The position numbers and the translations under genes were made by a program. 64,000 nucleotides of DNA from the IMG/VR virus record IMGVR_UViG_3300020187_003193; one strand, given 5' to 3'. Shown here one piece after another: positions 5,101-26,468 of the stretch (its first letter is position 1; each line of letters opens with the position of its first letter). Source of the stretch: a virus. The notes under the pieces are model-generated. The model did no database searches. It was not told the DNA's origin and saw only the letters and a program-made list of their open reading frames with translations.

Positions 5101-5107
5101 AAAGGTA

Positions 5108-5192: not shown

Positions 5193-5265
5193 CAAAGGTT
5201 TACTAGTTCCTTAAAAACTAGTTGGTGACGCTCTTGGAACAGGGAAGCCAAAGTTCATTTTTTAA

Positions 5266-5390: not shown

Positions 5391-5391
5391 C

Positions 5392-5462: not shown

Positions 5463-5495
5463 CTTAATTTCCAACAATGAATATAGGATTTTCAC

Positions 5496-5503
5496 ATATT
5501 TAT
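5496..5503 (+). promoter_or_regulatory. class II motif ATATTTAT (putative late promoter)
   Basis: 20 nt upstream of the tail fibre ATG; the same motif precedes several other genes. Confidence 0.45.
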
Positions 5504-5523
5504 AGTATATAAACTTGCTATAG

Positions 5524-9150: not shown

Positions 9151-9835
9151 CAGAAGAAAACAACACGTAAATTTAGAGGTTGTACAAACCGGTTTCGCAA
9201 ACGGGGTAGCAGAAGGCTTCCCATTCACAGACAATGAAAAATTAAAAATGATAGACGAAGCAGAAGTTGCCTACGGTCAGTTTTTAGATGCTCTTAAATG
9301 TGATTGGAGAAACGATCCAAACTCAATGGAAACACCAAGACGTGTAGCAAAAGCATACGTAAATGACCTGTGGGCAGGTAGATACACGGCGATGAGCGAA
9401 ATAACTTCATTTCCTAGTGATGGTTATGATGGTGTAATTATCGAGCGTAATATACCGTTAACTTCGATGTGTTCGCACCACCACCAAACAATTGGAGGCG
9501 TAGTTCATATTGGATATATCGCCGGAGCAGATGGTCAAGTAATTGGTTTATCTAAATTAAATCGTATTGTAGAATTATTTGGTAGAAGAGGAGCAATCCA
9601 AGAACAATTAACATCAGCCATTCATAATGCTGTAGAAAAAATTACAGAAGGTAACTTAGGTGTAATTGTAACAATCGTAGGAACACATAATTGTGTATCC
9701 TGTAGAGGTGTTAAACATCAAGGAGCAGCAATGGTAACAACTAAAGCATCAGGAGCCTTTAGAGACGATACTAATAATGCTCGTAAAGAGTTTTTTGATA
9801 GTTTAAAAATTAATAACGGAGGACATAATATATAA
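9140..9835 (+). CDS. folE: GTP cyclohydrolase I
   Basis: ETPRRVAK, SMCSHHHQ, GLSKLNR, IQEQLT and HNCVSCRG motifs. Confidence 0.95.
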   Translation: MANNRRKQHVNLEVVQTGFANGVAEGFPFTDNEKLKMIDEAEVAYGQFLDALKCDWRNDPNSMETPRRVAKAYVNDLWAGRYTAMSEITSFPSDGYDGVIIERNIPLTSMCSHHHQTIGGVVHIGYIAGADGQVIGLSKLNRIVELFGRRGAIQEQLTSAIHNAVEKITEGNLGVIVTIVGTHNCVSCRGVKHQGAAMVTTKASGAFRDDTNNARKEFFDSLKINNGGHNI

Positions 9836-9838
9836 GAT

Positions 9839-10504
9839 ATGTTTGATATAACTAAACTAGCTTTAACCATTCCCAATTTTCTTACACATGAAGAATGTGA
9901 TAGATTAATTAATGAATTCGAACAAAGAAAAGAAGAAGCTAACTTTGAAGGTAGCCTTAATTACAATACAAATAAACGTAGACAATCTACTTTTAAAGTT
10001 GTTCCCTTAAAACCACGTACTGATAGTTTTAATTTTATTAAAGAAAAAACAAAATTGGCTATAGATACTTGGATAAATTATTTAGAACAACCTAAATATT
10101 TTTTTACCCATTCATTAAAAAGTTACCTAAATTTTTCTCATAATTATAGGATAATGAAATATGAAACTGGTGCTGAAATACACCCTCATTCAGATCATGA
10201 TTCTGGAATTTACGGTAGTATAAGTTTTAATTTAAACGATGATTATGAAGGGGGAGAGTTTAAATTTTTTAATGGCAATCATACAATACCATTAAGTAAA
10301 GGAGATGCTTTAATATTCCCCGCTGATTTCTTTTGGGTACATGAAGTAACAAAAGTAACTAAAGGAGAAAGATATAGTATAAATAGTTTTATACGTAGCT
10401 ATCCCGAAGATGTAAAAGACAAAGTAGACTACCTTACCAGAGTAATAAATCAGGATTATTTACAAAATACCCCTACAGAGTATTTATTAGGACCCTACAA
10501 TTAA
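9839..10504 (+). CDS. 2OG-Fe(II) oxygenase (P4H-like)
   Basis: HSDHD...YEGGEF...FPA...HEVTKVTKGERYS. Confidence 0.85.
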   Translation: MFDITKLALTIPNFLTHEECDRLINEFEQRKEEANFEGSLNYNTNKRRQSTFKVVPLKPRTDSFNFIKEKTKLAIDTWINYLEQPKYFFTHSLKSYLNFSHNYRIMKYETGAEIHPHSDHDSGIYGSISFNLNDDYEGGEFKFFNGNHTIPLSKGDALIFPADFFWVHEVTKVTKGERYSINSFIRSYPEDVKDKVDYLTRVINQDYLQNTPTEYLLGPYN

Positions 10505-10508
10505 ACTT

Positions 10509-10964
10509 ATGGCATTAAAAGTAGAAAATAAATTATTTTTAAGCTGGGACGATATTGAAAGTATTACTGACGTCTTAGCTGAAAAAATATTAGCATTAGA
10601 TAAAAAACCATTTTACCTTTATGGTTGTCCTAGAGGTGGTCTAATTCCTGCCGTAATATTATCTCATAAAACAGGTATAGCTTACCAACATTTAAACCCT
10701 GCTCAACTATCAAAAACAGCAGATTTGTCCCATATAATGGTTATAGACGACATTTGTGATTCAGGAAAAACTGTAGCAGAGTTAAGAGAAAATTACAACA
10801 AAATACGTGTAGCTACATTACATACTAAAATAGAATCCCCAAACCAACCGGATATTTATGGAAAAGTAGTAGGAGACGAATGGATAACTTACCCTTGGGA
10901 AAAACAAAATTCAGAACCAATACAAGATTATAAAGCAGAAGGATATGGAAGAATTCAACCCTAA
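10509..10964 (+). CDS. type I phosphoribosyltransferase (purine PRT-like)
   Basis: PRGGLIPA, PRPP-binding loop VIDDICDSGKT, WITYPWE. Confidence 0.85.
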   Translation: MALKVENKLFLSWDDIESITDVLAEKILALDKKPFYLYGCPRGGLIPAVILSHKTGIAYQHLNPAQLSKTADLSHIMVIDDICDSGKTVAELRENYNKIRVATLHTKIESPNQPDIYGKVVGDEWITYPWEKQNSEPIQDYKAEGYGRIQP

Positions 10965-11334
10965 AGAAGAATCAAAAGGTATAGGAGATACAATAGCAAA
11001 ATTTACCCATGCTACCGGTTTAGATAAATTAGCAGACACTATTGCTAAAGCTGTAGGTGAAGAAGATTGTGGATGTAACGGAAGAAGAAAAACATTAAAT
11101 GAAATGTTTCCCTATACTAAACCTACTCCACCTGAAGAACCTCCCCATGTTAATACTGCTCCATTAGATGAAACTATTGGAAATTACGAGGTTCTTCAAG
11201 AAATTCATTGTACATTACCCGGAATTGGAAATACGGTTTTAAATAAAGGTACAGTTTTAATTATAACAAAAACCCACCCTCTATATAACGATATTCTCCA
11301 TTATTATAAAATAAACGCAATTAAAAAGTTATGA
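10945..11334 (+). CDS. hypothetical phage protein
   Basis: GIGDTIAK...CGCNGRR motif; coupled ORF. Confidence 0.6.
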   Translation: MEEFNPKEESKGIGDTIAKFTHATGLDKLADTIAKAVGEEDCGCNGRRKTLNEMFPYTKPTPPEEPPHVNTAPLDETIGNYEVLQEIHCTLPGIGNTVLNKGTVLIITKTHPLYNDILHYYKINAIKKL

Positions 11335-11873: not shown

Positions 11874-13161
11874 AAAAGGTCTATTTCCATTTATAATTGC
11901 TTTCGCTGCCTTGTCAGTATCTGCATCAGCAGCATTCTATTCAGTTAGTGGTTTAAGTAAATTATTTGCGGGAGCATCTTTTGAAGTTATTATAATGGCT
12001 ACCTCTTTGGAGGTAGCTAAACTTGTGATTGCCTCACTATTATATCAGTATTGGGACACAATAAACAAGTGGCTTAAATTATATCTTTCTATTGCTGCGC
12101 TAGTATTGGTGTTCATTACTAGTATGGGTATATATGGCTTTTTATCCGCTGCTTACCAAGCAACAGCATCCGAAATGTCAGTTGTAGATAATAAAGTAAA
12201 ATTTTTAACTCAAAAGAAAGATTTCTATGAATCGGATTTGGCAAGGTATGACAAAGACCTTGAGATTATTGGAGCCAATATTAATAATTTATCAACTGCG
12301 AAATCTAGTCAAATACAAGTCCGAGATACCACCTCAACGACAGGTTTCCGTACTACTGTATCTACAACAGAGCTTAGAATGGCTCAAAAACGTATTGAGG
12401 TTGAGGAAGTAAATAGAAAAGCAGTACAAGCAAAACGAGAAGTAGCAGCTGATAGTTTACAAAAATATCAACTTGCTATTCTTGAATTAGAAAATACATC
12501 TGAAGTAGCAGGCGAATTAGGACCACTTAAATATCTATCAGGACTTACCGGGATTCCAATGGATAAAATTATTAACTATTTGTTGTTAGTTATTATATTC
12601 GTATTTGACCCATTAGCAATTTCACTTGTAATAGCTGCTAACTTTGCTTTTGATCAAATTAAACCAAAGAAGGAAGAAGATGATTTAAAAAATTGGTCAA
12701 TAGTAGAAAGCGATGTATGGGATGGTTTAGATGAAATAGAACTTGAAGCCGACCCAAATGACCTTCCAGACATCAACCCTGAAAATGATATTGAGGTAAT
12801 TGAACCTGAAGTAGTTAAACCAGAAACGAAAGAATTTCTAAAAGAGTTAGATGAACTCGAAGATAAAGTATCTCAAAAGGAAATTATAGAAGAACAAGAT
12901 AATAAAATTGAATTCTTATATGGTGAGCTAACTAAAGCAAACGAAGAAATTAATGAATTAGATCGTGCTGCTATTAAAATCGTAGATTCAATTAAACATA
13001 TAGACGATTACTTAAAAAACCACGCTCCATATTACTCCCCAGATATAGCAAATTGGGATGAAATAAAACTTGGATTCGCGGAAGAAAGTGATTATATTGA
13101 TAAACGCAAACCAAGGTCTAAGCCTAAAGGTAAAGACAATGACGACGTAATAATATACTAA
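11848..13161 (+). CDS. multi-pass membrane protein with coiled coil and acidic tail
   Basis: Three N-terminal hydrophobic helices, a coiled coil, one further TM helix (LLLVIIFVFDPLAISLVIAA). Confidence 0.7.
   Translation: MKNFLHSVKKGLFPFIIAFAALSVSASAAFYSVSGLSKLFAGASFEVIIMATSLEVAKLVIASLLYQYWDTINKWLKLYLSIAALVLVFITSMGIYGFLSAAYQATASEMSVVDNKVKFLTQKKDFYESDLARYDKDLEIIGANINNLSTAKSSQIQVRDTTSTTGFRTTVSTTELRMAQKRIEVEEVNRKAVQAKREVAADSLQKYQLAILELENTSEVAGELGPLKYLSGLTGIPMDKIINYLLLVIIFVFDPLAISLVIAANFAFDQIKPKKEEDDLKNWSIVESDVWDGLDEIELEADPNDLPDINPENDIEVIEPEVVKPETKEFLKELDELEDKVSQKEIIEEQDNKIEFLYGELTKANEEINELDRAAIKIVDSIKHIDDYLKNHAPYYSPDIANWDEIKLGFAEESDYIDKRKPRSKPKGKDNDDVIIY
13070..13100 (+). promoter_or_regulatory. 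class I promoter embedded in coding sequence upstream of polB-N
   Basis: TTGG-N19-TATATTGA. Confidence 0.5.
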
Positions 13162-13177
13162 AGAGTAAAATAAGGTT

Positions 13178-14941
13178 ATGTATAAAAAAATTCATGCTCA
13201 AGGTGCTGGTCAAAACAAACACCTCATTCATTTATGGGACGACGAAGGTTACCACCAAATCAAATGGAAGAACCACTCCTATAGAGAAGTAAATTCTGAT
13301 GATGCCCCTTATAGAGGTCTAAATGGTGAAAAACTAGTTAGAACCAACGATGCTAAAAAAGGAGACATGGGATTACATTTCCATGATATATCAGCCCACC
13401 AAAAGTTCCTTATTGAAACCTATGGTATAAACGATGAACCTTCTACTACCCACAGAGAAGTATTTTTCGATATCGAGATTGAAATGGGAGGAGCACTTAC
13501 AGAAGAATATATAGCATCTGCACCTAAACCTGTAACTTCAATTGCTTGGTATGATAAACAAGCAGACCATTGGTCTATTATTATCTTAGATAAAAAGGGA
13601 CAATTAAAACATACTAAAACAGGAGAAAATAAAAATAAGGAGATTATACCTGTTTCACATGAAGCAGATTTACTTGATATGTTTCTCAACAAAATGGAGG
13701 AAATCAACCCTGATATTTTAGTAGGATACAATAGTGATTACTTCGATATCCCTTACCTATATTACAGAATGTGTAATGTTTTAGGTGATTCTGAAGCAAA
13801 GCGTTTATCACCTATTGGGCTAGTAGACGATAAAGTATCTAAAGGCGAATACTGGTATAAAGCAGACCAATTTGTTGATATAATCGGCTTACAATCGCTG
13901 GATTACATGCGATTACATAAAAAATATGGGTGGGAAGACGAACCATCTTGGAAACTAGATGCCATTGGAGAAAAATATGTAGGTATCAATAAAATCGAAT
14001 ACGAGGGTTCACTTGATAGGTTATTTGAAGAAGACATTCACAAGTTTATTCAATATAACTTTGTCGATGTTGAAATCTTAGTTGAACTAGATAAAAAACT
14101 TCAATATCTAGCCTTAACAAAAAACTTAGCACATAAAGGTAAAGTAAATTATAGCGAAGTATATGCCTCCTCTAAAATACATGATGGTGCTATTTCAGCA
14201 TATCTACTTTCAAAAGGAATAATTCCACCAAATCGCCCTATGGGTGCTAAAAAACTTAACTATGCAGGTGGTTATTTATTTTGTCCTAAAGCAGGTTTGT
14301 ATAAATATATGTTTGATGAGGATTTAACTTCTTTATATCCTTCAATCATTATGTCCCTAAACATAGGACAAGAAACCTTTATGGGAAGGATTGTACCTGA
14401 AGATTTACCCGAAAACTTACAAGATTTTGGTCCATATAGTGGTAAACCAGACCGTAACAATTATTTCGGACTAAGTGATTTAAAAAATATGGACCCTGAA
14501 AGGGAACTTATTATTAAAAATCATAGAGAAAAAGCAGCTACAGTTACAGTAGAAAAACTTATAGCTTTAATAGAAAAGAATAAATGGACTGTATCCGCAA
14601 ATGGTTGCTTTTTTAGAACAGATAAAGAATCGGTATTATCAACTATCCTAAACAAATGGTTTGATGAACGTGTTTTGTATAAAAATAGAATGAAAAAAGC
14701 ATACAAAGCAGGCGATACAGAGGGTGGAGAAAAAAACCACTTACTACAGTACACAATGAAAATCCTACTTAACTCACTTTATGGAGCAACAGCATTACCT
14801 TCATTTAGATATGGAATGCCTATGTCAATACTATCAGAAGCAATTACATTGTCAGGATGGAGAATTATACAAGAATCAGCACTATGTGCTAACAGACATA
14901 TGAATAAAGTAATTAAAAACGAAATTAAAATAGAACTATAA
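13178..14941 (+). CDS. polB: family B DNA polymerase, N-terminal part (3'-5' exonuclease plus motifs A and B)
   Basis: FFDIEIE, GYNSDYFDIPY, YNFVD (Exo I-III); DLTSLYPS; KILLNSLYG; stops before motif C. Confidence 0.92.
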   Translation: MYKKIHAQGAGQNKHLIHLWDDEGYHQIKWKNHSYREVNSDDAPYRGLNGEKLVRTNDAKKGDMGLHFHDISAHQKFLIETYGINDEPSTTHREVFFDIEIEMGGALTEEYIASAPKPVTSIAWYDKQADHWSIIILDKKGQLKHTKTGENKNKEIIPVSHEADLLDMFLNKMEEINPDILVGYNSDYFDIPYLYYRMCNVLGDSEAKRLSPIGLVDDKVSKGEYWYKADQFVDIIGLQSLDYMRLHKKYGWEDEPSWKLDAIGEKYVGINKIEYEGSLDRLFEEDIHKFIQYNFVDVEILVELDKKLQYLALTKNLAHKGKVNYSEVYASSKIHDGAISAYLLSKGIIPPNRPMGAKKLNYAGGYLFCPKAGLYKYMFDEDLTSLYPSIIMSLNIGQETFMGRIVPEDLPENLQDFGPYSGKPDRNNYFGLSDLKNMDPERELIIKNHREKAATVTVEKLIALIEKNKWTVSANGCFFRTDKESVLSTILNKWFDERVLYKNRMKKAYKAGDTEGGEKNHLLQYTMKILLNSLYGATALPSFRYGMPMSILSEAITLSGWRIIQESALCANRHMNKVIKNEIKIEL

Positions 14942-15204
14942 TGGCATTAACAAAACAAGTATTAAGACAAGGAGTTCACGTAATGGTAAACGATCACCAC
15001 GCTACAAAAGAAGAACTCATAGAAATGAGCCAAGATTGGAGTGAAAAAAGAGAAGTATTTTTCCGTAAAATGCTCCAACAGGGAGGAAAATTTAAGTTTG
15101 ATGGAATAAACTTTGAAATTAAATTAAGAGAGCGTATACTAAACAGTGAAGGTGAAATTGATGCAGGTGTAGTTAAATTACCCGGAGACGGTACAAGATT
15201 TTAA
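14941..15204 (+). CDS. hypothetical protein
   Basis: 87-aa ORF, TAATG-coupled to polB-N. Confidence 0.65.
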   Translation: MALTKQVLRQGVHVMVNDHHATKEELIEMSQDWSEKREVFFRKMLQQGGKFKFDGINFEIKLRERILNSEGEIDAGVVKLPGDGTRF

Positions 15205-16646
15205 TGGAGAAATTTGTCTGGATTACAGGAGGTGATGAGGCTTACATGAAAATGGTTAAAGTTCTTGCCAAGAGTTTACTTAAATATTCTAGGCATAAAC
15301 TTATAGTATATGGATTTAATTGTGACCCTAATATTAATCTTCCAAATGTAATTCAAAGAAGAGTAAATTTTACTCCTAAAAACACCCATTACTTTAGCCA
15401 TGAACCTGATTTAATTAATAAAGATTATTCTTTATATTATGGTAAATATATAGCAAGTTTATATTCATTAGAAGAAAAGTTTGAAAAATTTGCTTGGATA
15501 GATGGTGATGCTTTTGTTACTAAAAATATAGACAAATCCTTAAAATACCTGCCCGAAATCCCAGAATATCCTCTTTTTATGAGATATTATCACCCAGATA
15601 TGGCCCAATGGAAATTACATGGTCAGATTAAATTGGATGGGAGATATGGAATGGAATTAGCCTATATTAAAAAAATTACCCGTAACCCAAACAATAGAAT
15701 TATTGCTACGGGATTCTATTTCTATGATAAACGTAGTAAATGGTTTTTTGATAGGTGTATGGAATGGTATTCTGAACTGAGTAACAGAAGTTTAAGGGTA
15801 TTTGTAGATAATAATGCCTTCTCAGAGGAAAGGGTAGCAAATTGTATCTTATGGCAAGAAAACTTAACTAAATATCTTCCAATTACATGGAACAATTACT
15901 ATAGTTCACCTGAAGAAACTAAAGTAAAAAGTATTTATTTAAAAAAAGGGTTTGATGTAATGTACGATGAAAGTACACTAGAACCATATTTTATACATGG
16001 GCCTGATCCATCAGTAATTAAAAAGGACCATGAAGTATTATCTAACACTTTTAATGATTACACTTGTACTAAATTAATGATAGTAGCTCACCCTGATGAC
16101 GAATTAATATTTGGGGGAGGGGAACTTATAAATAATGCCCAAGACTATAAAGTGATATGCTTAACTAATTCCTCAAATGAAATTCGTAGAAAAGAATTTT
16201 CAAAAGTAATGAAGGAATTACAAGTAAAGTCTTGGGAAATGTGGAATTTAAAAGATGATTTATATTCATTTAATGATTTAGATATTCTAAAATTAAAAAC
16301 AATAATCCTTAATAGAAAATGGGAGAAAATAGTCACCCACAACCCCATAGGAGAATATGGTCACCCTCAACATAGAGCTATATTTGAAGCTGTTAAAAGT
16401 ATAACTAAAAATTTCTACGTATTTGGCAAATCCCCTAAACGGTTAGATTTAGAAACTTTAACAACTAAAATAAATATCTTAAACCTATACTCCTCAGAAA
16501 GTGACATAATAGTCCAACTATTAAATAAATCCGGAGATTGGTTTAAAAGCAACGATGATAATACAAACTACATTGAACACGAATCTATAGAAAAATATGA
16601 TTCAGAAAAAGATACTACCCCCTATATAGCTTGTTATGAAAAATAA
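15204..16646 (+). CDS. fusion: GT-A-like glycosyltransferase plus PIG-L/LmbE-like de-N-acetylase
   Basis: N-terminal WIDGDAF (DxD); C-terminal VAHPDDE and THNPIGEYGHPQH. Confidence 0.7.
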   Translation: MEKFVWITGGDEAYMKMVKVLAKSLLKYSRHKLIVYGFNCDPNINLPNVIQRRVNFTPKNTHYFSHEPDLINKDYSLYYGKYIASLYSLEEKFEKFAWIDGDAFVTKNIDKSLKYLPEIPEYPLFMRYYHPDMAQWKLHGQIKLDGRYGMELAYIKKITRNPNNRIIATGFYFYDKRSKWFFDRCMEWYSELSNRSLRVFVDNNAFSEERVANCILWQENLTKYLPITWNNYYSSPEETKVKSIYLKKGFDVMYDESTLEPYFIHGPDPSVIKKDHEVLSNTFNDYTCTKLMIVAHPDDELIFGGGELINNAQDYKVICLTNSSNEIRRKEFSKVMKELQVKSWEMWNLKDDLYSFNDLDILKLKTIILNRKWEKIVTHNPIGEYGHPQHRAIFEAVKSITKNFYVFGKSPKRLDLETLTTKINILNLYSSESDIIVQLLNKSGDWFKSNDDNTNYIEHESIEKYDSEKDTTPYIACYEK

Positions 16647-17667
16647 AGAATGTTTTTTAGTTACCGCTTATTGTAATACAGAAGAGAAAAAACAAGTATT
16701 ATTAAATACTTTAAATTCTCTAAAAAGGTATAATAAAGAAATTATACTATTTTCTCATTTTCCAATTACAGAAGAAGAAAATCTTTTAACAAATTATTCT
16801 GTATACGATTATAGTAATCCTATGATTGACATAAATGAGGGTTCTATACTTCATTGGAAAATGGTTGAAAATTATAGACTATGTACCTTGTATGTAGACT
16901 ATGGTTACGCTGCAGTACAACAATGGAAAAGAGGGTTACTTTTTGCAAATATGTTAGAATTTGAAAAGGTATATGTTTTAAATTATGATTTAAATGTAAC
17001 GGATGATTTAGTTTATCTTTCTGAAAAGGGTTTAATGAATCACAAAAGTGTATTATTAGACTATGATTTACCTCAAAGTGAAAGGTCGGCTCATATGTCA
17101 TGGGCAGCCATTAAACCTCTTCATTTTGCTAATAATATATTAGAAATAAATTATCAAGATTACTTAAAAACAGCTCACGGCAGAATCCCAGAGGGATATA
17201 TATTTAATAAATTTAATTCAGATGAAACCCAATTAATCTTACCTGACCAATGGCAACCCATAGCCACAACTTTAATTAGTATGGGGGATAAAGGTTTTGT
17301 AGAAGAATATTATACTGGAGATGGGTTTAAATGGATTTTAGGCCAAGAAAAAATATATAACCAAGGCGAAGAAACATTAACAAATAAAACGGTATTATTC
17401 TTTTGGGACATAGAAAAAGAATTAGATGTTGAAGTTTTTATTGATGGTAAAGCAATACCTTTAAGAGATATAAAAACTACTGACAGAACCCTTCAAATAT
17501 ATGTTCCAATACCTAGTAACGAAATGGAAAATTATGTTGGTAAGTTTATAAATAATACATTTGAATATGTAGAAGACAGATTAAGAATTACCATAAATGG
17601 TTTGGAGATCGATAAAGAATTACTTAGATTAAGCACTATATCAGCAATCGAAACTATAAATGACTAA
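16636..17667 (+). CDS. hypothetical protein (possibly GT-like)
   Basis: 343-aa coupled ORF; NYD motif only weakly suggestive. Confidence 0.55.
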   Translation: MKNKECFLVTAYCNTEEKKQVLLNTLNSLKRYNKEIILFSHFPITEEENLLTNYSVYDYSNPMIDINEGSILHWKMVENYRLCTLYVDYGYAAVQQWKRGLLFANMLEFEKVYVLNYDLNVTDDLVYLSEKGLMNHKSVLLDYDLPQSERSAHMSWAAIKPLHFANNILEINYQDYLKTAHGRIPEGYIFNKFNSDETQLILPDQWQPIATTLISMGDKGFVEEYYTGDGFKWILGQEKIYNQGEETLTNKTVLFFWDIEKELDVEVFIDGKAIPLRDIKTTDRTLQIYVPIPSNEMENYVGKFINNTFEYVEDRLRITINGLEIDKELLRLSTISAIETIND

Positions 17668-18856
17668 CTTAGATTATACCCAACGTACTAAATGTGCCTC
17701 ATGCGAATCTACGGAACTTCATACCATTCATGATTTCGGTATAGTTCCATTAGCAGGATACTTTCCAACAGAAGAAGAAAAAACCATTAGATCCGACTAT
17801 CCCTTAAAATGGCAAATTTGTAAAAAATGTAGTTTAGTACAAACCGATCATTTAATAGATCCACAAACATTATTCAAAGATTATAGATATATCTCCTCAG
17901 TAGGAATGCAACGTCATTTTAACCAATATTCTGAGTGGTTAGTTAATAATGGAGTAAATAAAGATATTGAAATTTTAGAATTTGGGTGTAATGATGGTCC
18001 ATTACTATTAGCCTTAAAAGAAAAAGGTATAAATGCTACAGGTATAGACCCTGCAACTAATATTACAAAATTAGGTAGGGATAAAGGATTAAACATTATA
18101 GACGATTTTTTTAATACTGAAAATGTAGAAAAATATAGTTTAACCAATAAATTCGATTATATTTTATCAAGCAATTCATTTGCCCACATAAGCGACATAC
18201 AATCAGTAGTTAAAGGCGTTACACATGCTTTAAAACCAAATGGTAAATTCATTGTTGAAGTACAATACTTAATTGATTTAGTAGACAAATTCCAATTTGA
18301 TTTTATATATCATGAACATTTATATTACTACACTTTAACAAGTCTACAAAATTTGTTAAGCCCTTATGGTCTAAGTATTATTGATTTCGAACGTATCCCA
18401 ATTCATTCTGGATCAATTAGAGTTATAATAGGTAGAAGTGAAGAACATGAAATTAGTAATAGCGTTTATCTACAAATAGAAAACGAAAAGGAATATTTAA
18501 ATTTAGATACCTTTAGTACTAAAGTAGAAGAAGCATTAAATAATTTATCTAATTTCTTTAAAGAAAACAAAAACAAAACAATTATAGGGTATGGAGCCTC
18601 AGGTAGGGCTAATATGATAGTTAATCAATTAAAATTAACTACAGACGATCTAAAGTATATAGTAGACGAATCACCTGAACGTTATAATAGGTATATGGCT
18701 AACCAAGAAATACCTATAATTTCTTTAGAGGATTTAAACGAAAAAGGAGATTACATTCTACTATTGGCATGGAATTTTTCGGATATGATCATTGAAAAAA
18801 CTAAACATTTAGGTATCCCATATGTTATACCTTTCCCAAATCTTAAAATAGTATGA
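17660..18856 (+). CDS. NDP-sugar C-methyltransferase-like SAM methyltransferase
   Basis: N-terminal CASC...CKKC, LEFGCNDG, YHEHLYYY, C-terminal GYGASGRAN. Confidence 0.8.
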   Translation: MTNLDYTQRTKCASCESTELHTIHDFGIVPLAGYFPTEEEKTIRSDYPLKWQICKKCSLVQTDHLIDPQTLFKDYRYISSVGMQRHFNQYSEWLVNNGVNKDIEILEFGCNDGPLLLALKEKGINATGIDPATNITKLGRDKGLNIIDDFFNTENVEKYSLTNKFDYILSSNSFAHISDIQSVVKGVTHALKPNGKFIVEVQYLIDLVDKFQFDFIYHEHLYYYTLTSLQNLLSPYGLSIIDFERIPIHSGSIRVIIGRSEEHEISNSVYLQIENEKEYLNLDTFSTKVEEALNNLSNFFKENKNKTIIGYGASGRANMIVNQLKLTTDDLKYIVDESPERYNRYMANQEIPIISLEDLNEKGDYILLLAWNFSDMIIEKTKHLGIPYVIPFPNLKIV

Positions 18857-19776
18857 AAGGAGAAAAAATTTTTATAACAGGAGGAGCCGGGTATTTAGGA
18901 TCCCATTTAGTAGAACGTTATTATAGTGATAATGAAATAACTGTTTATTCAAGAGATGAAGCAAAGCATTATTATCTTAAAAAACGTTTTCCTAAAATTA
19001 ATTGTATTATAGGAGATGTACGTAATGCGGATTTACTAATAAGATCTGCTAAAAACCATACAATTGGTATATTTGCCGCCTCATTAAAGCAAATAGAATC
19101 TGTAGATCAAAATGTAGAAGAAGCAGTTAGGGTATTAATTGATGGTTCTATTAATTCTCGAAGAGCAGCTGAAGAAAATAATTTTAAAGCTGCATGTTTT
19201 ATATCATCTGATAAATCTCGCGCTGCTACTACCCTATATGGTTCTATGAAGTTCATTGCAGGAGAATCCTTTATAGTAAACTCAGAAAAATCACAAGTAA
19301 ATTTATCATCAGCCATATATGGTAATGTTTTAAACTCTACAGGTAGTATTATACCCTTAATATGGGATTCTATTAATAAAAACTATCCACTTACCCTATA
19401 CTCAGAAGAAATGACTAGGTTCATGATTGAGATACAGGAAGCAATTGATTTAATTGAAATCGGTTTAGAATTAGATGGTGTAAATATTATACCTAATTTA
19501 AAATCATTTTTAGTTAAAGATTTATTTGAAATATATTCTGAGAAGTTTGGGTTACAATATAAAAACGGTCAACCCCGTATTTCTGAAAAAATACATGAAG
19601 TAATGATAGCCCAAGAAGAAGTTCCTAGAACTACTTTAAAAGATAAAGTTTACGTAATGCATTATAACAACATATCAGAATCTCCAATTCCACATGAATT
19701 TACAAGTGCGTATTCTTTAGTGTCTAAGCAAGATCTAGATCGTATATTACAGACATATAATTATTTTAAACCATGA
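18853..19776 (+). CDS. UDP-HexNAc 4,6-dehydratase-like SDR (PseB/CapD family)
   Basis: ITGGAGYLG, YSRDEAKH, ISSDK, LYGSMK, YGNVLNSTGSIIP. Confidence 0.8.
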   Translation: MKGEKIFITGGAGYLGSHLVERYYSDNEITVYSRDEAKHYYLKKRFPKINCIIGDVRNADLLIRSAKNHTIGIFAASLKQIESVDQNVEEAVRVLIDGSINSRRAAEENNFKAACFISSDKSRAATTLYGSMKFIAGESFIVNSEKSQVNLSSAIYGNVLNSTGSIIPLIWDSINKNYPLTLYSEEMTRFMIEIQEAIDLIEIGLELDGVNIIPNLKSFLVKDLFEIYSEKFGLQYKNGQPRISEKIHEVMIAQEEVPRTTLKDKVYVMHYNNISESPIPHEFTSAYSLVSKQDLDRILQTYNYFKP

Positions 19777-20156
19777 AAGTAGAAATATCAAACGGGGAGC
19801 TATTAGATAAAATTTCAATTTTAGAGTTAAAAATGCTTAGAATTGAAGATGAAGAAAAATTAGTTAACATCAAAAACGAATTTAATACACTAAACCCATT
19901 AGTAGTAGAATTGTTTGAGCAATATGGTAGTGAATTACAAACCCATTATCTGGAATTAGCTAAAATAAACGGCAAATTATGGGATATAGAGGATTGGATT
20001 CGAGATTGTGAACGTGAAAATAGATTTGATAAAGAATTTGTAGAATTAGCCCGTTCTGTGTATATTACCAATGACCAAAGATCAGAGGTTAAAAAATTAA
20101 TCAACTTGCTAACAAATTCAGGACTAGTTGAAGAAAAGTCATATAAAAAGTATTAA
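19773..20156 (+). CDS. DUF6165-like protein
   Basis: ISNGELLDKISILELK...LWDIEDWIR...SVYITNDQR. Confidence 0.7.
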   Translation: MKVEISNGELLDKISILELKMLRIEDEEKLVNIKNEFNTLNPLVVELFEQYGSELQTHYLELAKINGKLWDIEDWIRDCERENRFDKEFVELARSVYITNDQRSEVKKLINLLTNSGLVEEKSYKKY

Positions 20157-21082
20157 TGAAACACATAGAAGATACACCTTGGTTTATTTGCGATGAAGAA
20201 GACGTAAACTACTGTGCTTACGTTGACACGGATTCAAACTACTTTAATGCGGAACCTCTTCTAAAACACTTATATCCTAACTTTGAAGAATTCCCGGAAG
20301 AAGAAAAGGATGATATACTAGAAAAGGTTGCGTTAAAATATCAAGATGTTATAAACGAAGAATACGACAATTTAGCTCGCAACTGCTTCAATATACAAGG
20401 TACACATCGTCTCGAAATGAAAACTGAATGTGTTATTCGTTCAGCATACTTTAGAGCAACACGTAGATATGCTCAGTGGATTACAAAACAAGAAGGTATT
20501 GTAAAAGAATCACTTGATGTAAAAGGATTAGAATATAAAAAATCTAACTTTCCTAAAGTGTTTGGTAATTTCTTTAAAAATGTACTTGAAGATGTTTTAA
20601 AAGGAACACCTCAAGGAGAAATCGATACAAGAATTTTGGATTTCAAACAAAAGATATTACATTCAATGCCAATTAATGAGTTAGGAAACCCACAAGGTGT
20701 AAAAACTCTAAACAAATATATTGAACGTAAACCAGTAGGCACAGAAATATTTACAGTAATCCGTAAAGGAGCACCTGCTGCAGTACGTGCTACAATTAAA
20801 TATAATGATTTATTAAAATATTGGAAATTAGATAAGACATATAGTCAAATTGTTCAAGGTGATAAAGTAAAATGGATTTACTTAAAAAAGAACCCATTTC
20901 AAATTGAAGCGTTAGCTTATCTTGATTTTGATATGCCTGATAAAATTAAAGATTTCTTAGATAAATTTGCTGATAAAGAAAAAGTATTTGACACAATATT
21001 ATTAAATAAATTAGAAGGTTTTTACGAAGATTTAGAATGGAGGTTAAATACAAACCCTTACGTTAACCAGTTTTTTACATGA
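20156..21082 (+). CDS. polB: family B DNA polymerase, C-terminal part (motif C, thumb)
   Basis: YVDTDS near the N-terminus, RRYA, VKGLEYKKS. Confidence 0.9.
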   Translation: MKHIEDTPWFICDEEDVNYCAYVDTDSNYFNAEPLLKHLYPNFEEFPEEEKDDILEKVALKYQDVINEEYDNLARNCFNIQGTHRLEMKTECVIRSAYFRATRRYAQWITKQEGIVKESLDVKGLEYKKSNFPKVFGNFFKNVLEDVLKGTPQGEIDTRILDFKQKILHSMPINELGNPQGVKTLNKYIERKPVGTEIFTVIRKGAPAAVRATIKYNDLLKYWKLDKTYSQIVQGDKVKWIYLKKNPFQIEALAYLDFDMPDKIKDFLDKFADKEKVFDTILLNKLEGFYEDLEWRLNTNPYVNQFFT

Positions 21083-21780
21083 TTTATATTTTTGATGTCG
21101 ATGGAACATTAACTCCCTTCCGAGGGTTAATTGACCCCAGTTTTAAAACATTTTTTCAATCATTTATTAAGAAAAATAGTGTATGGTTAATTTCAGGCAG
21201 TGATAAAGATAAAACAATTGAACAATTGGGTTTTGATATATGGGGTTCAGTAGAACGTTGCTACCAAAATTCAGGCAATCAACTTTTTATTAATAATAAG
21301 TTAGAATACCAACATGAGTTTAATCTTCCAACCCAATGTGAAGATTTATTAAAAAGGTTTTTAGAAAAATCTAAATATCCCTACCGATATGGAAATCATA
21401 TTGAACAACGAGAGGGTGCTGTTAATTTTTCTGTTATAGGTAGAAGTTGTAACCAAGAGCAAAGAGAACATTATGGAGCATGGGATAAAAAACATCAAGA
21501 ACGTAAGAAATTTGCTTGTAAAATTAGAGAAAAACACCCAGGGTTAGATGCTGTAGTAGGTGGAGAAATTAGTATTGATATATATGAAAAAGGTAAAGAC
21601 AAAGGACAAATTGTAAAAGATATAAAAGACAAATTTATATTCTTTGGAGATAGACTACAACCAGGGGGGAATGATTTTCCTATACAACAACAAATTATTT
21701 CTCAAAAACGGAAGGATTGTAAAATTCATCACGTAAAGAGTTGGAAAGACACTGAAAAATTATTACATTTATTAACATGA
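21079..21780 (+). CDS. HAD-IIB phosphomannomutase (eukaryote-type PMM-like)
   Basis: FDVDGTLT, IEQREGAVNFS, GGEISIDI, FFGDRLQPGGND. Confidence 0.82.
   Translation: MIYIFDVDGTLTPFRGLIDPSFKTFFQSFIKKNSVWLISGSDKDKTIEQLGFDIWGSVERCYQNSGNQLFINNKLEYQHEFNLPTQCEDLLKRFLEKSKYPYRYGNHIEQREGAVNFSVIGRSCNQEQREHYGAWDKKHQERKKFACKIREKHPGLDAVVGGEISIDIYEKGKDKGQIVKDIKDKFIFFGDRLQPGGNDFPIQQQIISQKRKDCKIHHVKSWKDTEKLLHLLT
21741..21771 (+). promoter_or_regulatory. class I promoter upstream of putative clamp gene
   Basis: TTGG-N19-TACATTTA. Confidence 0.45.
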
Positions 21781-22496
21781 AAAAAAGTTATATTATAGAC
21801 AATATCCAAAAATATTTTTTGGGTGGATTAGTAGGTGAAGTTATATGGACTATATCGAATGGTAAAGTAGAAATTAACTTTGAAACCTCAACAAAAGATG
21901 CAATTGGTAATTTAGTATTTGATTTAGCATTAGAGGATAATGAAATAGGTATTTACAATACAGATTCATTATTAAGACTATTAAGTATTACAAATGAAGA
22001 TGTTCAACTCGAACTGTCTAAATCAAACACCGGTTTAGTAAATAAACTTAAAATTAAGGATAATAAATTTGATTTAGATTATAATTTAAGTGATATAAGT
22101 ATTATTCAAGCTGTAAGGAAAGTAGGTGAAGCAGATTACGATTTTACATTTCAAATTAATGACGAATTTATATCCAATTTTACTAAAGCACATAACGCTT
22201 TAGAAAAAACACCTCAATTCACTATCAATACAACTACCACAGCACAAAACGAAAATGTTGTTGAAATGTTGTTAGGTGAACGTTCAACACATGCTAATAA
22301 AGTTAAATTCACTGAACCCGCTACATTCACAAAACAAAGCGATATACTACCATTTTCAGCATTAGTATTTAGAGAAATATTATCATCAAATAAAGGTGCG
22401 GAAGGTACAATGAGTGTAAGTAATAAAGGATTAGCAAAACTAGAATTTAAGACAGATACAACTTTATCAAAATATTTTATGGTAAGGTTACAATAG
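21777..22496 (+). CDS. putative DNA sliding clamp (gp45/PCNA-like)
   Basis: 239 aa, two-domain alpha/beta pattern, C-terminal GLAKLEF...KYFMV; follows polB-C and lies upstream of the clamp-loader genes. Confidence 0.55.
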   Translation: MKKSYIIDNIQKYFLGGLVGEVIWTISNGKVEINFETSTKDAIGNLVFDLALEDNEIGIYNTDSLLRLLSITNEDVQLELSKSNTGLVNKLKIKDNKFDLDYNLSDISIIQAVRKVGEADYDFTFQINDEFISNFTKAHNALEKTPQFTINTTTTAQNENVVEMLLGERSTHANKVKFTEPATFTKQSDILPFSALVFREILSSNKGAEGTMSVSNKGLAKLEFKTDTTLSKYFMVRLQ

Positions 22497-22520
22497 CATA
22501 TATTTATAGCAAACCTTGAC

Positions 22521-23031
22521 TCTAGAGCGAGTTAGTTATGTAAATGTTATATTAAATCAATTTTTAAACCGACGATCTTAGGACGTCACAAACGTAAATC
22601 ATTATGAGTACATTATTTTATGAACGTAATCCGTTCGACATTTTAGTTAGAAATTTCTTTCAAGACGCTAGCCAATATTCACCGCTAGACCAAACCAAAT
22701 TATCCCACCCAGTAGACATCTATACAAACGACAAAGGACTTATCTTTGATGTTGCCTGTACTGGTATCGCTAAAGAAGACATTGAAATTTTACTTCAAGA
22801 CAATGTTCTTCGCATTAATTACACAAAAGCTAAAGAAGAAGAAGATGTAGACTATATCCACAAGGGTATTGCTAAACGTTCTTTTAACTTTGGTTGGAAA
22901 ATCGATTCTAAATTCGATTTATCAAAAGCCATAGCAAAATTCGAAAACGGATTATTGACTATTAGTGTACCTTTCGCTAAAGGTTCAGAGTTAAAAACTC
23001 TACAAATCAAGTAAATATTTCTCGCTCTAGA
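22521..23031. repeat. 11-bp inverted repeat bracketing the sHSP gene
   Basis: TCTAGAGCGAG (22521-31) and CTCGCTCTAGA (23021-31). Confidence 0.75.
22604..23014 (+). CDS. small heat-shock protein (Hsp20/alpha-crystallin)
   Basis: PVDIY...DVACTGIAKEDIEI...HKGIAKRSF...AKFENGLLTISVP. Confidence 0.92.
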   Translation: MSTLFYERNPFDILVRNFFQDASQYSPLDQTKLSHPVDIYTNDKGLIFDVACTGIAKEDIEILLQDNVLRINYTKAKEEEDVDYIHKGIAKRSFNFGWKIDSKFDLSKAIAKFENGLLTISVPFAKGSELKTLQIK

Positions 23032-23032
23032 C

Positions 23033-23063
23033 TTGGTTTATCGAACGAATGTTCGTATATTTA
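23033..23063 (+). promoter_or_regulatory. class I promoter
   Basis: TTGG-TTTATCGAACGAATGTTCG-TATATTTA; spacer contains the CGAAC-GAAT-GTTCG hairpin. Confidence 0.75.
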
Positions 23064-23097
23064 CATATAAGAAATAATAACAAACACACAATCAGTT

Positions 23098-23379
23098 ATG
23101 GCAAATCCAAATTTTAAAGGCAGACCAAAAGGGTCTGGAAAGAGTACATTCATCGAGGATGTATTATTAGGCGACTATAAAATCGTTGTAGACGAATATA
23201 GTTACAATGTAGTAGATACTACAAAAGAAAAAACTATTGGTTTCTATACTAATCTAGGAACAGCAGTTTTAGCAATAGCTAAACATCAAACAAATCAAGA
23301 TGGTGTATTTACCTTAAAGGAATATGCTAAAAACTTTGAAACAATTCATACTAATTTAAAAGAAGCAATTTTAAGATGA
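23098..23379 (+). CDS. hypothetical protein
   Basis: 93 aa, N-terminal KGRPKG (AT-hook-like). Confidence 0.6.
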   Translation: MANPNFKGRPKGSGKSTFIEDVLLGDYKIVVDEYSYNVVDTTKEKTIGFYTNLGTAVLAIAKHQTNQDGVFTLKEYAKNFETIHTNLKEAILR

Positions 23380-23666
23380 ACAAATTAAGACCAGTTAATG
23401 GGAACGTTATATTACGTCCTATCGAGGAAGAAGAATTAATGGCTGGAAACATCATTATCCCCGATATGGGTAAAGAAAAACCAGAAATGGCTGAAGTAAT
23501 AGCAATTTCTAATGTTTACAATTTTAATACTGATACAATAGTTCCTACAGATTTAGAAGTAGGTATGAAAGTATTATTACCAAAAATGGGTTCTCAAACT
23601 ATTACATTAGACGGAGAAGAATATTACATTACAGCACAAAATTCAATTTTATCAATAGTAGAATAA
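23376..23666 (+). CDS. groES: co-chaperonin GroES
   Basis: LRPVNGNV, mobile loop AGNIIIPD, KVLLPK, SILSIVE. Confidence 0.9.
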   Translation: MNKLRPVNGNVILRPIEEEELMAGNIIIPDMGKEKPEMAEVIAISNVYNFNTDTIVPTDLEVGMKVLLPKMGSQTITLDGEEYYITAQNSILSIVE

Positions 23667-23669
23667 GTT

Positions 23670-25304
23670 ATGACAGAAACAAGTTTCGGAAAAGAATCCA
23701 AGAATCAACTATTAGAAGGAGTTAAGAAACTCAATAATAGCGTAGCATCAACATTAGGGCCAGCTGGTAGAACAGTACTAATTAAAGAACCTAATGGTGA
23801 AATTAAAGTTACAAAAGATGGTGTTACTGTAGCAAAGGCATTTAAAGAACTTGAAAATCAAGTTGAATCTATTGGTGCAGAATTAGCTAAAAAAGTATCT
23901 GTAAAATCTGCTAACGAGGTAGGTGATGGTACAACAACTTCTACAGTATTAGCCACTGCTATTCTTGAAGAAGGAATCAAACAAATCAATGATGGTTCTA
24001 ATCCGGTTGATATCAAGAAAGGTATTGACGAGGCAGTAAACACTGTAAAAGAAGCATTAAAAGAACTATCTGTTGAAATTACAGAAGATTCACAAATTAA
24101 GGAAGTAGCTACTATTTCAGGTAACAACGATGAAGAGATTGGAACCTTAATTTCAACAGCTTTAGATAAAGTAGGTAGAGATGGAGTTGTAGCAATCGAA
24201 GAATCTAAAACTGGAGAAACTTCACTTGAAGTAGTAGAAGGTATGCAATTCGAACGTGGTTACAAATCACCATATTTTGTTACAGACAACGATTCAATGG
24301 CAGCGGTTTTAAACGACCCTTACATTTTAATCTATGATGGTAGAATTACACAAGCCAGTGAATTGCTTAATGTATTAAACAAAGCAAGTGGTGAAAGTAA
24401 ACCTTTACTTATTGTAGCTGAAGACATTGATGGAGAAGCATTAGCTACCCTCATTGTAAACAAAATGAGAGGAACTATTCAAGTTGTTGCTGTTAAAGCC
24501 CCTGATTTTGGTGATAGAAGAACTATGGCTTTAGAAGATTTAGCTACTGTAACAGGTGGTACTGTAATCTCTAAAAACAAAGGACATAAACTAGATAAAC
24601 TACAATCAATCCAATTCGGTGAATTATTAGGTAAAGCTAGAACAGTTAATGTTACTAAAGACAAAACTACTATCGTAGATGGTAAAGGCGGTGAAGAAGC
24701 TATTACAGCAAAAGCTAGTGAAATCAAATCCCAATTAGATAACGCAACATCAGCATTCGAAAAAGAAAAATTACAAGAAAGATTAGGTAAACTAATTGGA
24801 GGTGTAGCAATCATCAACGTTGGTGGAAATAGCGAAATCGAAATTAAAGAGAAAAAAGATAGAGTAGAAGATGCTTTATTTGCTACAAAAGCAGCATTAG
24901 AAGAAGGAATCCTAATCGGTGGTGGAACAGCATTATTTTACGCTGCACAGAAAATTAGCAGAGATGGAACAGACGATATTTCTGTAGGTAGAAGAATTGT
25001 ACGTAAAGCAATTCAAGAACCATTCTTCAAAATCTTAACAAATGCTGGACATGAAACAAATGATATTACATATGCTTCATTTAACTTGCTAGCAGATGAA
25101 AATACATGGAACGGATTAAATTATAAAGATTTAACTGTAATGGATTTCAAAGCAGCAGGTATTATTGACCCTAAAAAAGTTACAAGAATAGCAATAGAGA
25201 ATGCAGCATCAATCGCAGGAACTATTTTAACAACAGAATCAGTTATCTTTGAAAAGAAAGAAGATGATGACGAGACACCAAACCCAATGGCGGGAATGAT
25301 GTAA
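23670..25304 (+). CDS. groEL: chaperonin GroEL
   Basis: TLGPAG, TKDGVTVAK, GDGTTTSTV, EGMQFERGY, KAPDFGDRR, ERLGKL, GIIDPKKV. Confidence 0.97.
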   Translation: MTETSFGKESKNQLLEGVKKLNNSVASTLGPAGRTVLIKEPNGEIKVTKDGVTVAKAFKELENQVESIGAELAKKVSVKSANEVGDGTTTSTVLATAILEEGIKQINDGSNPVDIKKGIDEAVNTVKEALKELSVEITEDSQIKEVATISGNNDEEIGTLISTALDKVGRDGVVAIEESKTGETSLEVVEGMQFERGYKSPYFVTDNDSMAAVLNDPYILIYDGRITQASELLNVLNKASGESKPLLIVAEDIDGEALATLIVNKMRGTIQVVAVKAPDFGDRRTMALEDLATVTGGTVISKNKGHKLDKLQSIQFGELLGKARTVNVTKDKTTIVDGKGGEEAITAKASEIKSQLDNATSAFEKEKLQERLGKLIGGVAIINVGGNSEIEIKEKKDRVEDALFATKAALEEGILIGGGTALFYAAQKISRDGTDDISVGRRIVRKAIQEPFFKILTNAGHETNDITYASFNLLADENTWNGLNYKDLTVMDFKAAGIIDPKKVTRIAIENAASIAGTILTTESVIFEKKEDDDETPNPMAGMM

Positions 25305-25326
25305 TTTTAATTTAAATTAAATAAAA

Positions 25327-25494
25327 ATGAGTAAACAAGAAGTTTTTGAACAAATCGACGCTTTGTATGAGACATTCAAAGCAGAGAACGCTGGAACAAC
25401 AAAAGCATCTCAACAAAGAGCTAGAAAAGCAATTGGTGAGATTAAAAAGCTAGTTACGGAATACCGTAAAGCTTCAGTTGCAGAAAGCAAGTAA
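25327..25494 (+). CDS. histone H1-like Hc1-family small basic protein, 55 aa (not in ORF track)
   Basis: ...GTTKASQQRARKAIGEIKKLVTEYRKASVAESK* matches the RARK...RKAS pattern of the Hc1 family. Confidence 0.7.
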   Translation: MSKQEVFEQIDALYETFKAENAGTTKASQQRARKAIGEIKKLVTEYRKASVAESK

Positions 25495-25500
25495 TTTATG

Positions 25501-25530
25501 TGGGGAAGCTTGGCTTCCCCATTTATTTTT
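25501..25530 (+). terminator. intrinsic terminator overlapping the next promoter
   Basis: TGGGGAAGC-TTG-GCTTCCCCA followed by TTTATTTTT. Confidence 0.75.
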
Positions 25531-25540
25531 ATTATATTCA
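25510..25540 (+). promoter_or_regulatory. class I promoter
   Basis: TTGG-N19-TATATTCA upstream of the clamp loader. Confidence 0.65.
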
Positions 25541-25556
25541 CACAAATTAAGGTTAC

Positions 25557-26468
25557 ATGCTAGTTAGAGAACATACATTATTTACAGAAAAATTCCGCCC
25601 AACTGATCCCGCAGATTACATTGGAAATGATGGTTTTAAACAAGATCTAAACCAATGGATCGAAAAACAAGACTTACCACATCTATTATTATACGGTGCA
25701 GCAGGAACAGGTAAAACTACTGCTGCTAAACTAATTACAAGTAATATAGATTGCGATTTCTTATACGTCAACTGTTCAGATGAAAATGGTATAGAAACAA
25801 TTAGAGATAAGGTAAAATCATTCGCATCTGCTGCGACATTCCGCGCTTTAAAGGTGGTTATAATGGATGAAGCTGATTTTCTAACGATCAACGCACAAGC
25901 GGCATTACGTAACGTAATTGAAACATTTTCTATTACAACACGTTTTATCTTTACTTGTAACTATGTTGAACGTATAATCGATCCAATACAATCTAGAACA
26001 TCAGTATACGAAATAACACCTCCATCAAAAGGCGAGGTTGCCAAAAGATGTGTTAATATATTACAAGGAGAAAATGTTGAATTTAATAAAGAGGATTTAG
26101 TTGAAATTATCAACAAAACATACCCTGATATTAGAAAGACATTAAATTTATTACAATCATGTGTTAAAGACAATAAACTTGAACTCAATAAAAAGATTGT
26201 AAACCAAAAACAATACACAGATAAAATCATTGAATTGATTTCATCTAACGAACCTAGTGCTTTTAATCAAATACGTCAAATCGTAGCAGATTCAAACATT
26301 AGAGATTATAATGAATTATACAGAGCCTTATATAACAATTTAGATTCATTCCATAACCCAGTGTTAGGTACCATTATTATTGCCGAATCACAATATCAAT
26401 CCGTAATGGCTCCGGATAAAGAAATTACCTTTATGGGATGTATCGCTAACTTATTAAAACCATTCTAA
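25557..26468 (+). CDS. clamp loader AAA+ subunit (RFC small/gp44-like)
   Basis: FTEKFRP, GAAGTGKTT, IMDEADFL, QAALRN, PIQSR. Confidence 0.92.
   Translation: MLVREHTLFTEKFRPTDPADYIGNDGFKQDLNQWIEKQDLPHLLLYGAAGTGKTTAAKLITSNIDCDFLYVNCSDENGIETIRDKVKSFASAATFRALKVVIMDEADFLTINAQAALRNVIETFSITTRFIFTCNYVERIIDPIQSRTSVYEITPPSKGEVAKRCVNILQGENVEFNKEDLVEIINKTYPDIRKTLNLLQSCVKDNKLELNKKIVNQKQYTDKIIELISSNEPSAFNQIRQIVADSNIRDYNELYRALYNNLDSFHNPVLGTIIIAESQYQSVMAPDKEITFMGCIANLLKPF

Follow-up and report, generated by a model that had tools for sequence, protein, structure and literature searches.

Replicative DNA polymerases are known from textbooks as enzymes with a single-chain catalytic core. Natural splits of this core are known from one archaeal group and from a small number of cultured Aeromonas phages, which have it divided in the fingertip. 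The split family B polymerase (PolB) of Methanothermobacter thermautotrophicus was reportedly described by Kelman et al. in 1999, and the split-intein PolB of Nanoarchaeum equitans is said to have been reported by Choi in 2006. Here we analyze a 64,000-nt stretch of the virus record IMGVR_UViG_3300020187_003193 (the window hereafter, with positions counted from its first letter), in which a polB gene is divided into two open reading frames (ORFs) at a different place, between motifs B and C, and in which 5.2 kb of other genes lie between the two parts.

Among T4-like phages, five splits were known at the time of an earlier survey, all of them in the fingers, and the polymerase of phage RM378 is split between its N-terminal and palm domains (PMC3061061). 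A split gp43 is present in the Aeromonas phages 44RR2.8t, 25, 31, and 65 as well as in Acinetobacter phage 133 (Petrov and Karam; PMC2988022, PMC3061061), and the Aeromonas products 43A and 43B co-purify and are active (PMC2988022). In the annotation of 44RR2.8t, gene 43 (43A) encodes 498 amino acids (aa) and 43B encodes 391 aa. The PolB of M. thermautotrophicus has an intein-free split in the palm, approximately 83 residues C-terminal to the fingertip (PMC3061061), and the split in the Methanobacteriales was attributed to faulty intein excision (PMC4104785). Split Pfu polymerase behaves like the wild type, and an engineered Pfu split combined with a point mutation broadened the use of modified nucleotides (PMC3061061). 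Marine metagenomes were also found to contain "fractured genes", i.e., replication genes divided into two parts that in some cases flank a nuclease gene (Dassa 2009, PMC2677866). The precedents named in an earlier note on the window, which was made from its letters without database searches, are real, both for the Aeromonas phages 44RR and 25 (PMC2988022) and for Methanothermobacter (PMC2677866, PMC3061061). A literature search, which did not extend to most subscription journals and is thus no proof of absence, yielded neither a paper on a phage PolB divided between motifs B and C nor one on the clade to which the window belongs.

The phage represented by the window very probably has a single replicative polymerase, an RB69/T4 gp43-type family B enzyme composed of two non-covalently associated polypeptides, with a junction between their genes that has repeatedly gained cargo. 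The N-terminal half (N-half; 13178–14941, plus strand, 587 aa) comprises the N-terminal domain, the 3'-5' exonuclease, the first part of the palm, the fingers, and the helix after motif B, and terminates in a 10-aa tail (VIKNEIKIEL). It carries, all on the plus strand, the motifs Exo I (FDIEIE, 13466–13483), Exo II (YNSDYFDIPYL, 13727–13759), and Exo III (YNFVDVEIL, 14054–14080), followed by motif A in the palm (DLTSLYPS, 14321–14344) and motif B in the fingers (KILLNSLYG, 14759–14785). The C-terminal half (C-half; 20156–21082, plus strand, 308 aa) begins with the head MKHIEDTPWF and contains the motif C hairpin (YVDTDS, 20219–20236, plus strand), the remaining palm with the RRY(A) of a KKRY-type motif (20459–20479, plus strand), the thumb, and a tail ending in ...NQFFT. 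At this end (...NPYVNQFFT), where enzymes of the gp43 type have their clamp-binding tail, F306 is nearly invariant across relatives and the termini are otherwise variable.

The N-half matched the Pfam families PF00136 (DNA_pol_B, 2.7e−19) and PF03104 (DNA_pol_B_exo1, 6.2e−15). Both halves matched PHROG 262 (DNA polymerase, 856 positions), the N-half at positions 22–569 (2.9e−107) and the C-half at positions 565–851 (6.5e−50), and since this coverage is complementary, the halves represent two consecutive parts of one enzyme with none missing or duplicated. Against RB69 gp43, the N-half aligned up to approximately residue 610 (1.7e−46), with its exonuclease region on residues 161–434, and a profile built from 15 C-halves matched residues 608–885 (1.3e−7); the profile was required here, as the single C-half used as a query against the PDB gave no match. 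By these matches the enzyme is assigned to the family B DNA polymerases of the RB69/T4 gp43 type, with all Exo and Pol motifs intact. The two ORFs and the motifs that the earlier note had read from the letters were confirmed at the coordinates given there.

Aligning both halves to RB69 gp43, as the earlier note had proposed, mapped the break to approximately residue 608. It lies in the palm, 21 residues before YVDTDS, with the helix after motif B on one side and the β-hairpin of motif C on the other. The protein encoded by the C-half begins MKHIEDTPWFICDEEDVNYCAYVDTDS, a stretch that had been taken for a Cys/acidic N-terminal extension and a possible assembly interface. Most of it is not an extension, as ICDEEDVN aligns to RB69 residues 608–615 (VCGTEGEA) and the closest fused enzyme has a linker at this place; what holds of the claim are approximately ten head residues (MKHIEDTPWF), which are extra in comparison with RB69, as are seven residues of the tail. 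The head residues M1, K2, H3, P8, W9, C12, D16, and N18 are invariant in 15 C-halves that are 66–94% identical, which indicates that the start of the C-half is fixed and the head constrained, and the head may plausibly serve as an interface between the chains.

We searched 1.8 billion cluster representatives exhaustively and obtained 2,241 matches, among which P0123 (873 aa) is the closest fused enzyme, with identities of 55% in the N-half and 51% in the C-half. P0123 is co-linear with the halves, its residues 1–561 corresponding to 13178–14917 and its residues 586–871 to 20219–21079, and it has an in-frame linker of 26–30 residues where the window has the tail and the head. The RB69-like fold was assessed on this fused protein, while the halves of the window were compared with RB69 by sequence. 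Its AlphaFold2 (AF2) model (mean predicted local distance difference test score (pLDDT) 90.9, predicted template modeling score (pTM) 0.86) matched RB69 gp43 in Foldseek with an E-value of 9e−54 and a template modeling (TM) score of approximately 0.8. The sole internal stretch of low confidence in the model is 561–583 (pLDDT < 50 at 570–579), located between the helix 531–560 and the motif C hairpin 584–595, and the break of the window aligns to approximately residue 570/571. Because the break maps to this disordered linker, the model predicts that the cut falls within a flexible loop at the protein surface, one that was already present in the fused form.

In comparison with the Aeromonas 43A/43B pair, the window likewise encodes a T4-type family B replicase in two cistrons without an intein, within a replication module that has a clamp candidate and a clamp loader nearby, and a free-standing GIY-YIG endonuclease gene occupies the gap in one relative (L033), as it does in Aeromonas phage 25. 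The position of the cut is different: in 44RR it lies in the fingertip before motif B (KILINSLYG), as determined by alignment with 43A/43B and in agreement with the profile coordinates of PHROG 2062 and 1918, and 43B carries motifs B and C, whereas in the window the cut lies approximately 90–100 residues downstream and only motif C has moved. Being placed past motif B, it leaves the catalytic aspartate motifs on different chains. The junction is mostly an ATGA overlap in the clade of the window and an untranslated spacer in the Aeromonas group, the cargo reaches 5.9 kb of metabolic genes in the former and at most approximately 3 kb, as reported, in the latter, and the former is represented by thousands of marine sequences as opposed to a handful of cultured phages. 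The Methanothermobacter enzyme also has an intein-free break in the palm, which from its reported distance to the fingertip probably lies near motif C, though possibly at another residue or on the other side of this motif, and its two chains reconstitute an active enzyme, but it is an archaeal PolB3 with genes that are 85 kb apart and without a cargo island. The N. equitans PolB and the fractured genes are rejoined by protein trans-splicing, whereas the halves of the window have no intein pieces. The split NrdA of phage Aeh1 and the T4 gp60/gp39 topoisomerase (PMC2988022, PMC3045599) are also essential phage enzymes that were cut by insertions and reassemble non-covalently; these are, however, other enzymes, and the insert is a single homing-endonuclease gene instead of a variable multi-gene island.

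The arrangement is widespread among relatives. A search among proteins of similar length yielded 3,262 stand-alone relatives of the C-half, and the best 120 of these 3,262 are nearly all 307–308 aa long, 80–100% identical, and in many cases located on contigs of 100–250 kb. We took 80 IMG/VR loci, in 75 of which the junction was visible. Overlapping stop/start codons were present in 46 of the 75 (43 ATGA and 3 TAATG), a spacer of 9–43 nt in two, and at least one ORF in the remaining 27, with gaps of 210–5,938 bp; all of the ten loci nearest to the window (C-half ≥ 78% identical) contained cargo. Relatives with the same break and different cargo, which the earlier note had named as a check, were thus found. 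In the majority of relatives the halves are joined by a simple stop/start overlap and no gene separates them; the split is thus ancestral to a very large, mostly marine uncultured clade, and the cargo came later. One further locus (L085, 1–2569) has a 301-aa C-half that is 64% identical to P0144, and its 1.6 kb of upstream sequence contains small unrelated ORFs and no N-half; this phage may have its N-half at a distant location, or the contig may be chimeric.

The cargo of the relatives comprises at least a dozen families, among them an 87-aa protein, a mannose-6-phosphate-isomerase-type cupin, DUF2452, 2-oxoglutarate-Fe(II) oxygenases, a FkbM methyltransferase, and DUF6165. Smr-like ORFs (LDLHG), one of them 70 aa long, were found in the gap of four loci (L030, 9792–10004; L056, 6427–6636; L013, 1867–2088; L031, 4019–4240), and a SegE-like GIY-YIG endonuclease in that of L033 (204–641); both kinds are candidate mobile nucleases that could drive the turnover of cassettes. 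A pyridoxal phosphate-dependent, cysteine-synthase-like gene (PF00291, 2e−62) is the only cargo in L019 (421–1326) and L020 (9126–10004). The gap of L024 is 888 bp, the same length as that of L019. A separate IMG/VR viral contig (L011) has the sugar cassette of the window between its halves together with two more genes, and its cargo proteins are 69–85% identical to those of the window in comparison with 77–80% for the polymerase halves, a similarity that fits a cassette inherited together with the polymerase. Judging by the order of the genes, an island seems to have grown at the junction step by step, in a nested manner. Since other members hold quite different cargo, what connects the sugar genes with the polymerase appears to be their position and not a shared function.

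These junctions bear on whether the halves are ever made as one chain. In ATGA-type relatives the two halves might be fused by frameshifting or readthrough, and the arrangement of the window would then be derived and possibly impaired. The C frame of these loci is indeed −1 relative to the N frame and open for 3–30 nt upstream of the ATG, and a bicistronic −1 frameshift clone of Pfu provides a laboratory precedent of coupled synthesis (PMC3061061). We nevertheless consider this very unlikely, as there is no conserved slippery heptamer, the sequence preceding ATGA being freely variable from locus to locus, gapped loci show all three frame relations, and the conserved head begins exactly at the ATG. 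A fusion is moreover impossible across the 5.2 kb of the window, yet both halves are equally under purifying selection (pairwise ratios of nonsynonymous to synonymous substitution rates (dN/dS) of 0.04–0.17 in both halves).

It is highly improbable that the halves are rejoined into one chain after transcription or translation, be it by an intron holding the six ORFs, by trans-splicing, or by a split intein. Inteins and introns are classically found in motif C of family B polymerases, an uncultured phage of another lineage with the same break (LR756508.1) has inteins in motifs B and C, several metagenomic C-halves have a split-intein C-piece (...ILVHN/S), and others look cut inside motif C. In the window, however, neither half has an intein, Hint, or LAGLIDADG domain in Pfam, and an Rfam scan of the whole window at gathering thresholds gave two tRNAs only, with no group I or II intron. 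Neither the tail, with 10 aa, nor the head, with 18 aa ahead of the motif C strand, is long enough to be half of a split intein, and HN followed by Cys, Ser, or Thr is missing at the end of the head, in accordance with the earlier note, which had seen no split-intein termini. The stop/start overlap of the 46 relatives leaves no space for a splicing element, and the intervening ORFs of the window are intact and conserved in comparison with L011.

A gene broken by 5.2 kb of foreign genes resembles, taken on its own, an insertional knock-out, and what is available of this genome is a 64-kb stretch and not the full genome; the halves could accordingly be decaying remnants, with replication performed by another polymerase of the phage or the host. 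The probability of this is very low in our judgment, since the catalytic motifs are all intact, the dN/dS ratios are those of selected genes, and thousands of sequences that are 66–98% identical have retained the arrangement in two ORFs. The earlier note had held that an intact polB elsewhere in the genome, with the two halves inactive, would contradict its reading; there is no other polB-like sequence within the 64-kb window, and in two relatives of approximately 164 kb that are 100% complete according to CheckV (G001 and G002), PF00136 matches solely the two halves, with no family A (PolA) or DnaE polymerase in either genome. Finally, an assembly chimera, which had been raised in the earlier note, or a gene-calling artefact is practically negligible, even though the source is metagenomic and some short "split" proteins of other lineages could be frameshift errors, as the exact C-half protein of the window is present on 19 contigs of up to 183 kb, L011 holds the same cassette in the same place, and the break point is the same in 75 loci.

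The preferred reading is thus a heterodimeric replicase, as was suggested in the earlier note together with the use of the motif B/C break as a cargo-insertion site. Chain A (587 aa) would supply the N-terminal and exonuclease domains together with motif A and the fingers that bear motif B, and chain B (308 aa) would supply motif C, the remaining palm, the thumb, and the C-terminal tail. The chains would assemble non-covalently and form a composite active site with motif A from one and motif C from the other, and since the catalytic aspartate motifs are on separate chains, neither half is expected to polymerize alone. Overlapping stop and start codons would couple their translation. The junction may gather cargo because it would be the only harmless insertion point within an essential, well-expressed operon, the conserved coding flanks of the polymerase may act as homology arms for the exchange of cassettes between co-infecting relatives, and the free-standing nucleases of the gap (SegE-like GIY-YIG and Smr-like) may help in the gain of cargo. 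Several points weigh against this reading. The halves are separated by six cistrons over 5.2 kb, and the two chains may therefore not be produced in equal amounts. That the halves associate and form a composite active site is a prediction from the genes, and the reasons given for the gathering of cargo at the junction are proposals. The claim of a sole polymerase rests on the 64-kb window and on complete relatives that are only 63–68% identical.

The 5.2 kb between the halves is fully coding and contains six intact plus-strand ORFs. The first (14941–15204, plus strand) encodes a conserved small protein of 87 aa that is the commonest occupant of the junction in relatives, with homologues in the gap of 12 aligned loci. 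It had no match in Pfam, PHROG, or the atlas, its AF2 model reached a pLDDT of 63 only, and its sequence follows the pattern MALTKQ...FFRKMLQQGG...PG..F. A role of this protein as a third polymerase subunit linked to the split was considered and rejected, as it is absent at ATGA-type junctions and those genomes have a 37%-identical copy approximately 9 kb from polB (e.g., G002:C1:75260-75460). The second ORF (15204–16646, plus strand, 480 aa) has a C-terminal PIG-L-type de-N-acetylase domain (PF02585, 3e−15, residues 291–400) and an orthologue in L011 that is 75% identical, and the third (16636–17667, plus strand, 343 aa) is without a Pfam or PHROG match and has a 69%-identical orthologue in L011. 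The fourth (17660–18856, plus strand) is of the sugar C-methyltransferase type, with a Zn-binding N-domain (PF08421, 1.1e−11), an S-adenosylmethionine-dependent methyltransferase domain (PF13489, 1.5e−19), and a C-domain (PF08484, 8.2e−28). The fifth (18853–19776, plus strand) is a short-chain dehydrogenase of the polysaccharide-biosynthesis type (nucleotide-sugar 4,6-dehydratase/epimerase; PF02719, Polysacc_synt_2, 2.6e−40), 85% identical to its orthologue in L011. The sixth (19773–20156, plus strand, 127 aa) belongs to DUF6165 (PF19662, 3.3e−15), homologues of which also lie in the gap of L065 and L069. The genome represented by the window additionally encodes a preQ0/7-deazaguanine pathway and large sugar islands.

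Downstream of the C-half follow a phosphomannomutase (PMM; 21079–21780, plus strand; PF03332, 1.1e−27) and a sliding-clamp candidate (21777–22496, plus strand, 239 aa), which is proposed from its position, the same as in Mel-JY01 and LR756508.1 (L001), and from one weak PHROG match to a family of unknown function. The ten junctions from the N-half through the gene after PMM all consist of overlapping stop/start codons (TAATG, ATGA, or longer), with ATGA on both sides of PMM, in agreement with the earlier note on the six intact genes of the gap and their overlaps; the polymerase halves, the cargo, and the downstream genes read as one operon. No obvious Shine-Dalgarno (SD)-like sequence was noticed in the bases before the coupled starts at 13150–22500 (e.g., TATAAAAAGTATTAATG before the C-half), for which no systematic SD scan was run; missing SD-like bases would be compatible with coupling by termination and reinitiation, or with a host that relies little on SD sequences. 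A scan for promoters and terminators was uninformative, as promoter-like sites were fewer than in shuffled sequences and no convincing plus-strand terminator was detected. From PMM onward, the replication module (21079–26468) contains the clamp candidate, Hsp20 (22604–23014), GroES (23376–23666), GroEL (23670–25304), and a gp44-type clamp loader (25557–26468; PHROG 168, 3e−77). Chaperonin genes within a replication operon are unusual.

Breaks at the same or related sites were also found in other lineages. The cluster representatives include stand-alone C-halves of 277–320 aa that start 9–25 residues before DTDS, are 30–40% identical to that of the window, and have unrelated heads. In a FastTree phylogeny of the C-half region, the window and four other split representatives group together with the fused P0123 as their sister (Shimodaira-Hasegawa-like support 100). 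Over the whole tree the break state changes 19 times, with at least 14 changes forced by well-supported branches; as the tree is built from representatives only and some isolated split rows may be sequencing frameshifts, this count is suggestive and not exact. At the DNA level, LR756508.1, an uncultured phage of 484 kb, has four other ORFs inserted at an identically placed break of its polB, and a 180-kb contig (L084; 36–38% identical) has the same break with two unrelated ORFs in the gap. On this evidence, splitting at this site has clearly recurred, in at least two other lineages, with an uncertain exact count. No match to the locus of P0192 was found in viral contigs.

The inteins of LR756508.1 (in the region of 3364–6417, 9423–11288, and 12679–14073) interrupt motif B (KILIN/CFTPG...) and motif C (YTD/SCPGF...VVHN/TDS), and a downstream clamp-loader-like ORF of the same phage has an apparent intein in Walker A (GTGK/CLGY...VCHN/TS). 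Metagenomic C-halves with a split-intein C-piece of approximately 45 aa (...HTFFANDILVHN/S) at the motif C site are represented by P0155, P0195, P0220, P0229, P0242, and P0247, and they appear to be family B polymerases fractured in the way described by Dassa in 2009. Further classes among the representatives are ORFs that start inside motif C and pieces of the Aeromonas fingertip type. Seven stand-alone polB pieces of 418–470 aa (P0149, P0165, P0180, P0186, P0191, P0257, and P0262) have a Met start in the variable region after motif A, which may be a further natural break site.

The break in the loop before motif C was checked at the DNA level in at least three lineages. A wider interpretation, in which the palm cut is adaptive, would regard this as a recurrent and possibly selected break, the junction as a standard "socket" with ultra-conserved coding flanks for the exchange of cassettes among marine phages by homologous recombination, and the two-chain site as one that might alter nucleotide handling, for which the preQ0/7-deazaguanine pathway of this genome and the engineered Pfu split would be of interest; we see this as a rather unlikely, speculative extension of the data. 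What is new in the window is a different cut, by which the catalytic aspartate motifs are placed on separate proteins, as the normal state of a very abundant clade of uncultured marine phages, and this cut recurs in other lineages, including a huge phage of 484 kb. It offers a natural test of how the active site of a family B polymerase is put together when its parts come from separate polypeptides, and it reveals a loop tolerant of breaks that might be useful in polymerase engineering. Annotation pipelines that expect a single polB of approximately 850 aa will miss or mislabel such split genes. For the phages themselves, the junction represents a defined hotspot where auxiliary metabolic genes accumulate and are probably exchanged, which is relevant to the spread of such genes and to the reason why those for sugar modification are expressed here together with replication genes.

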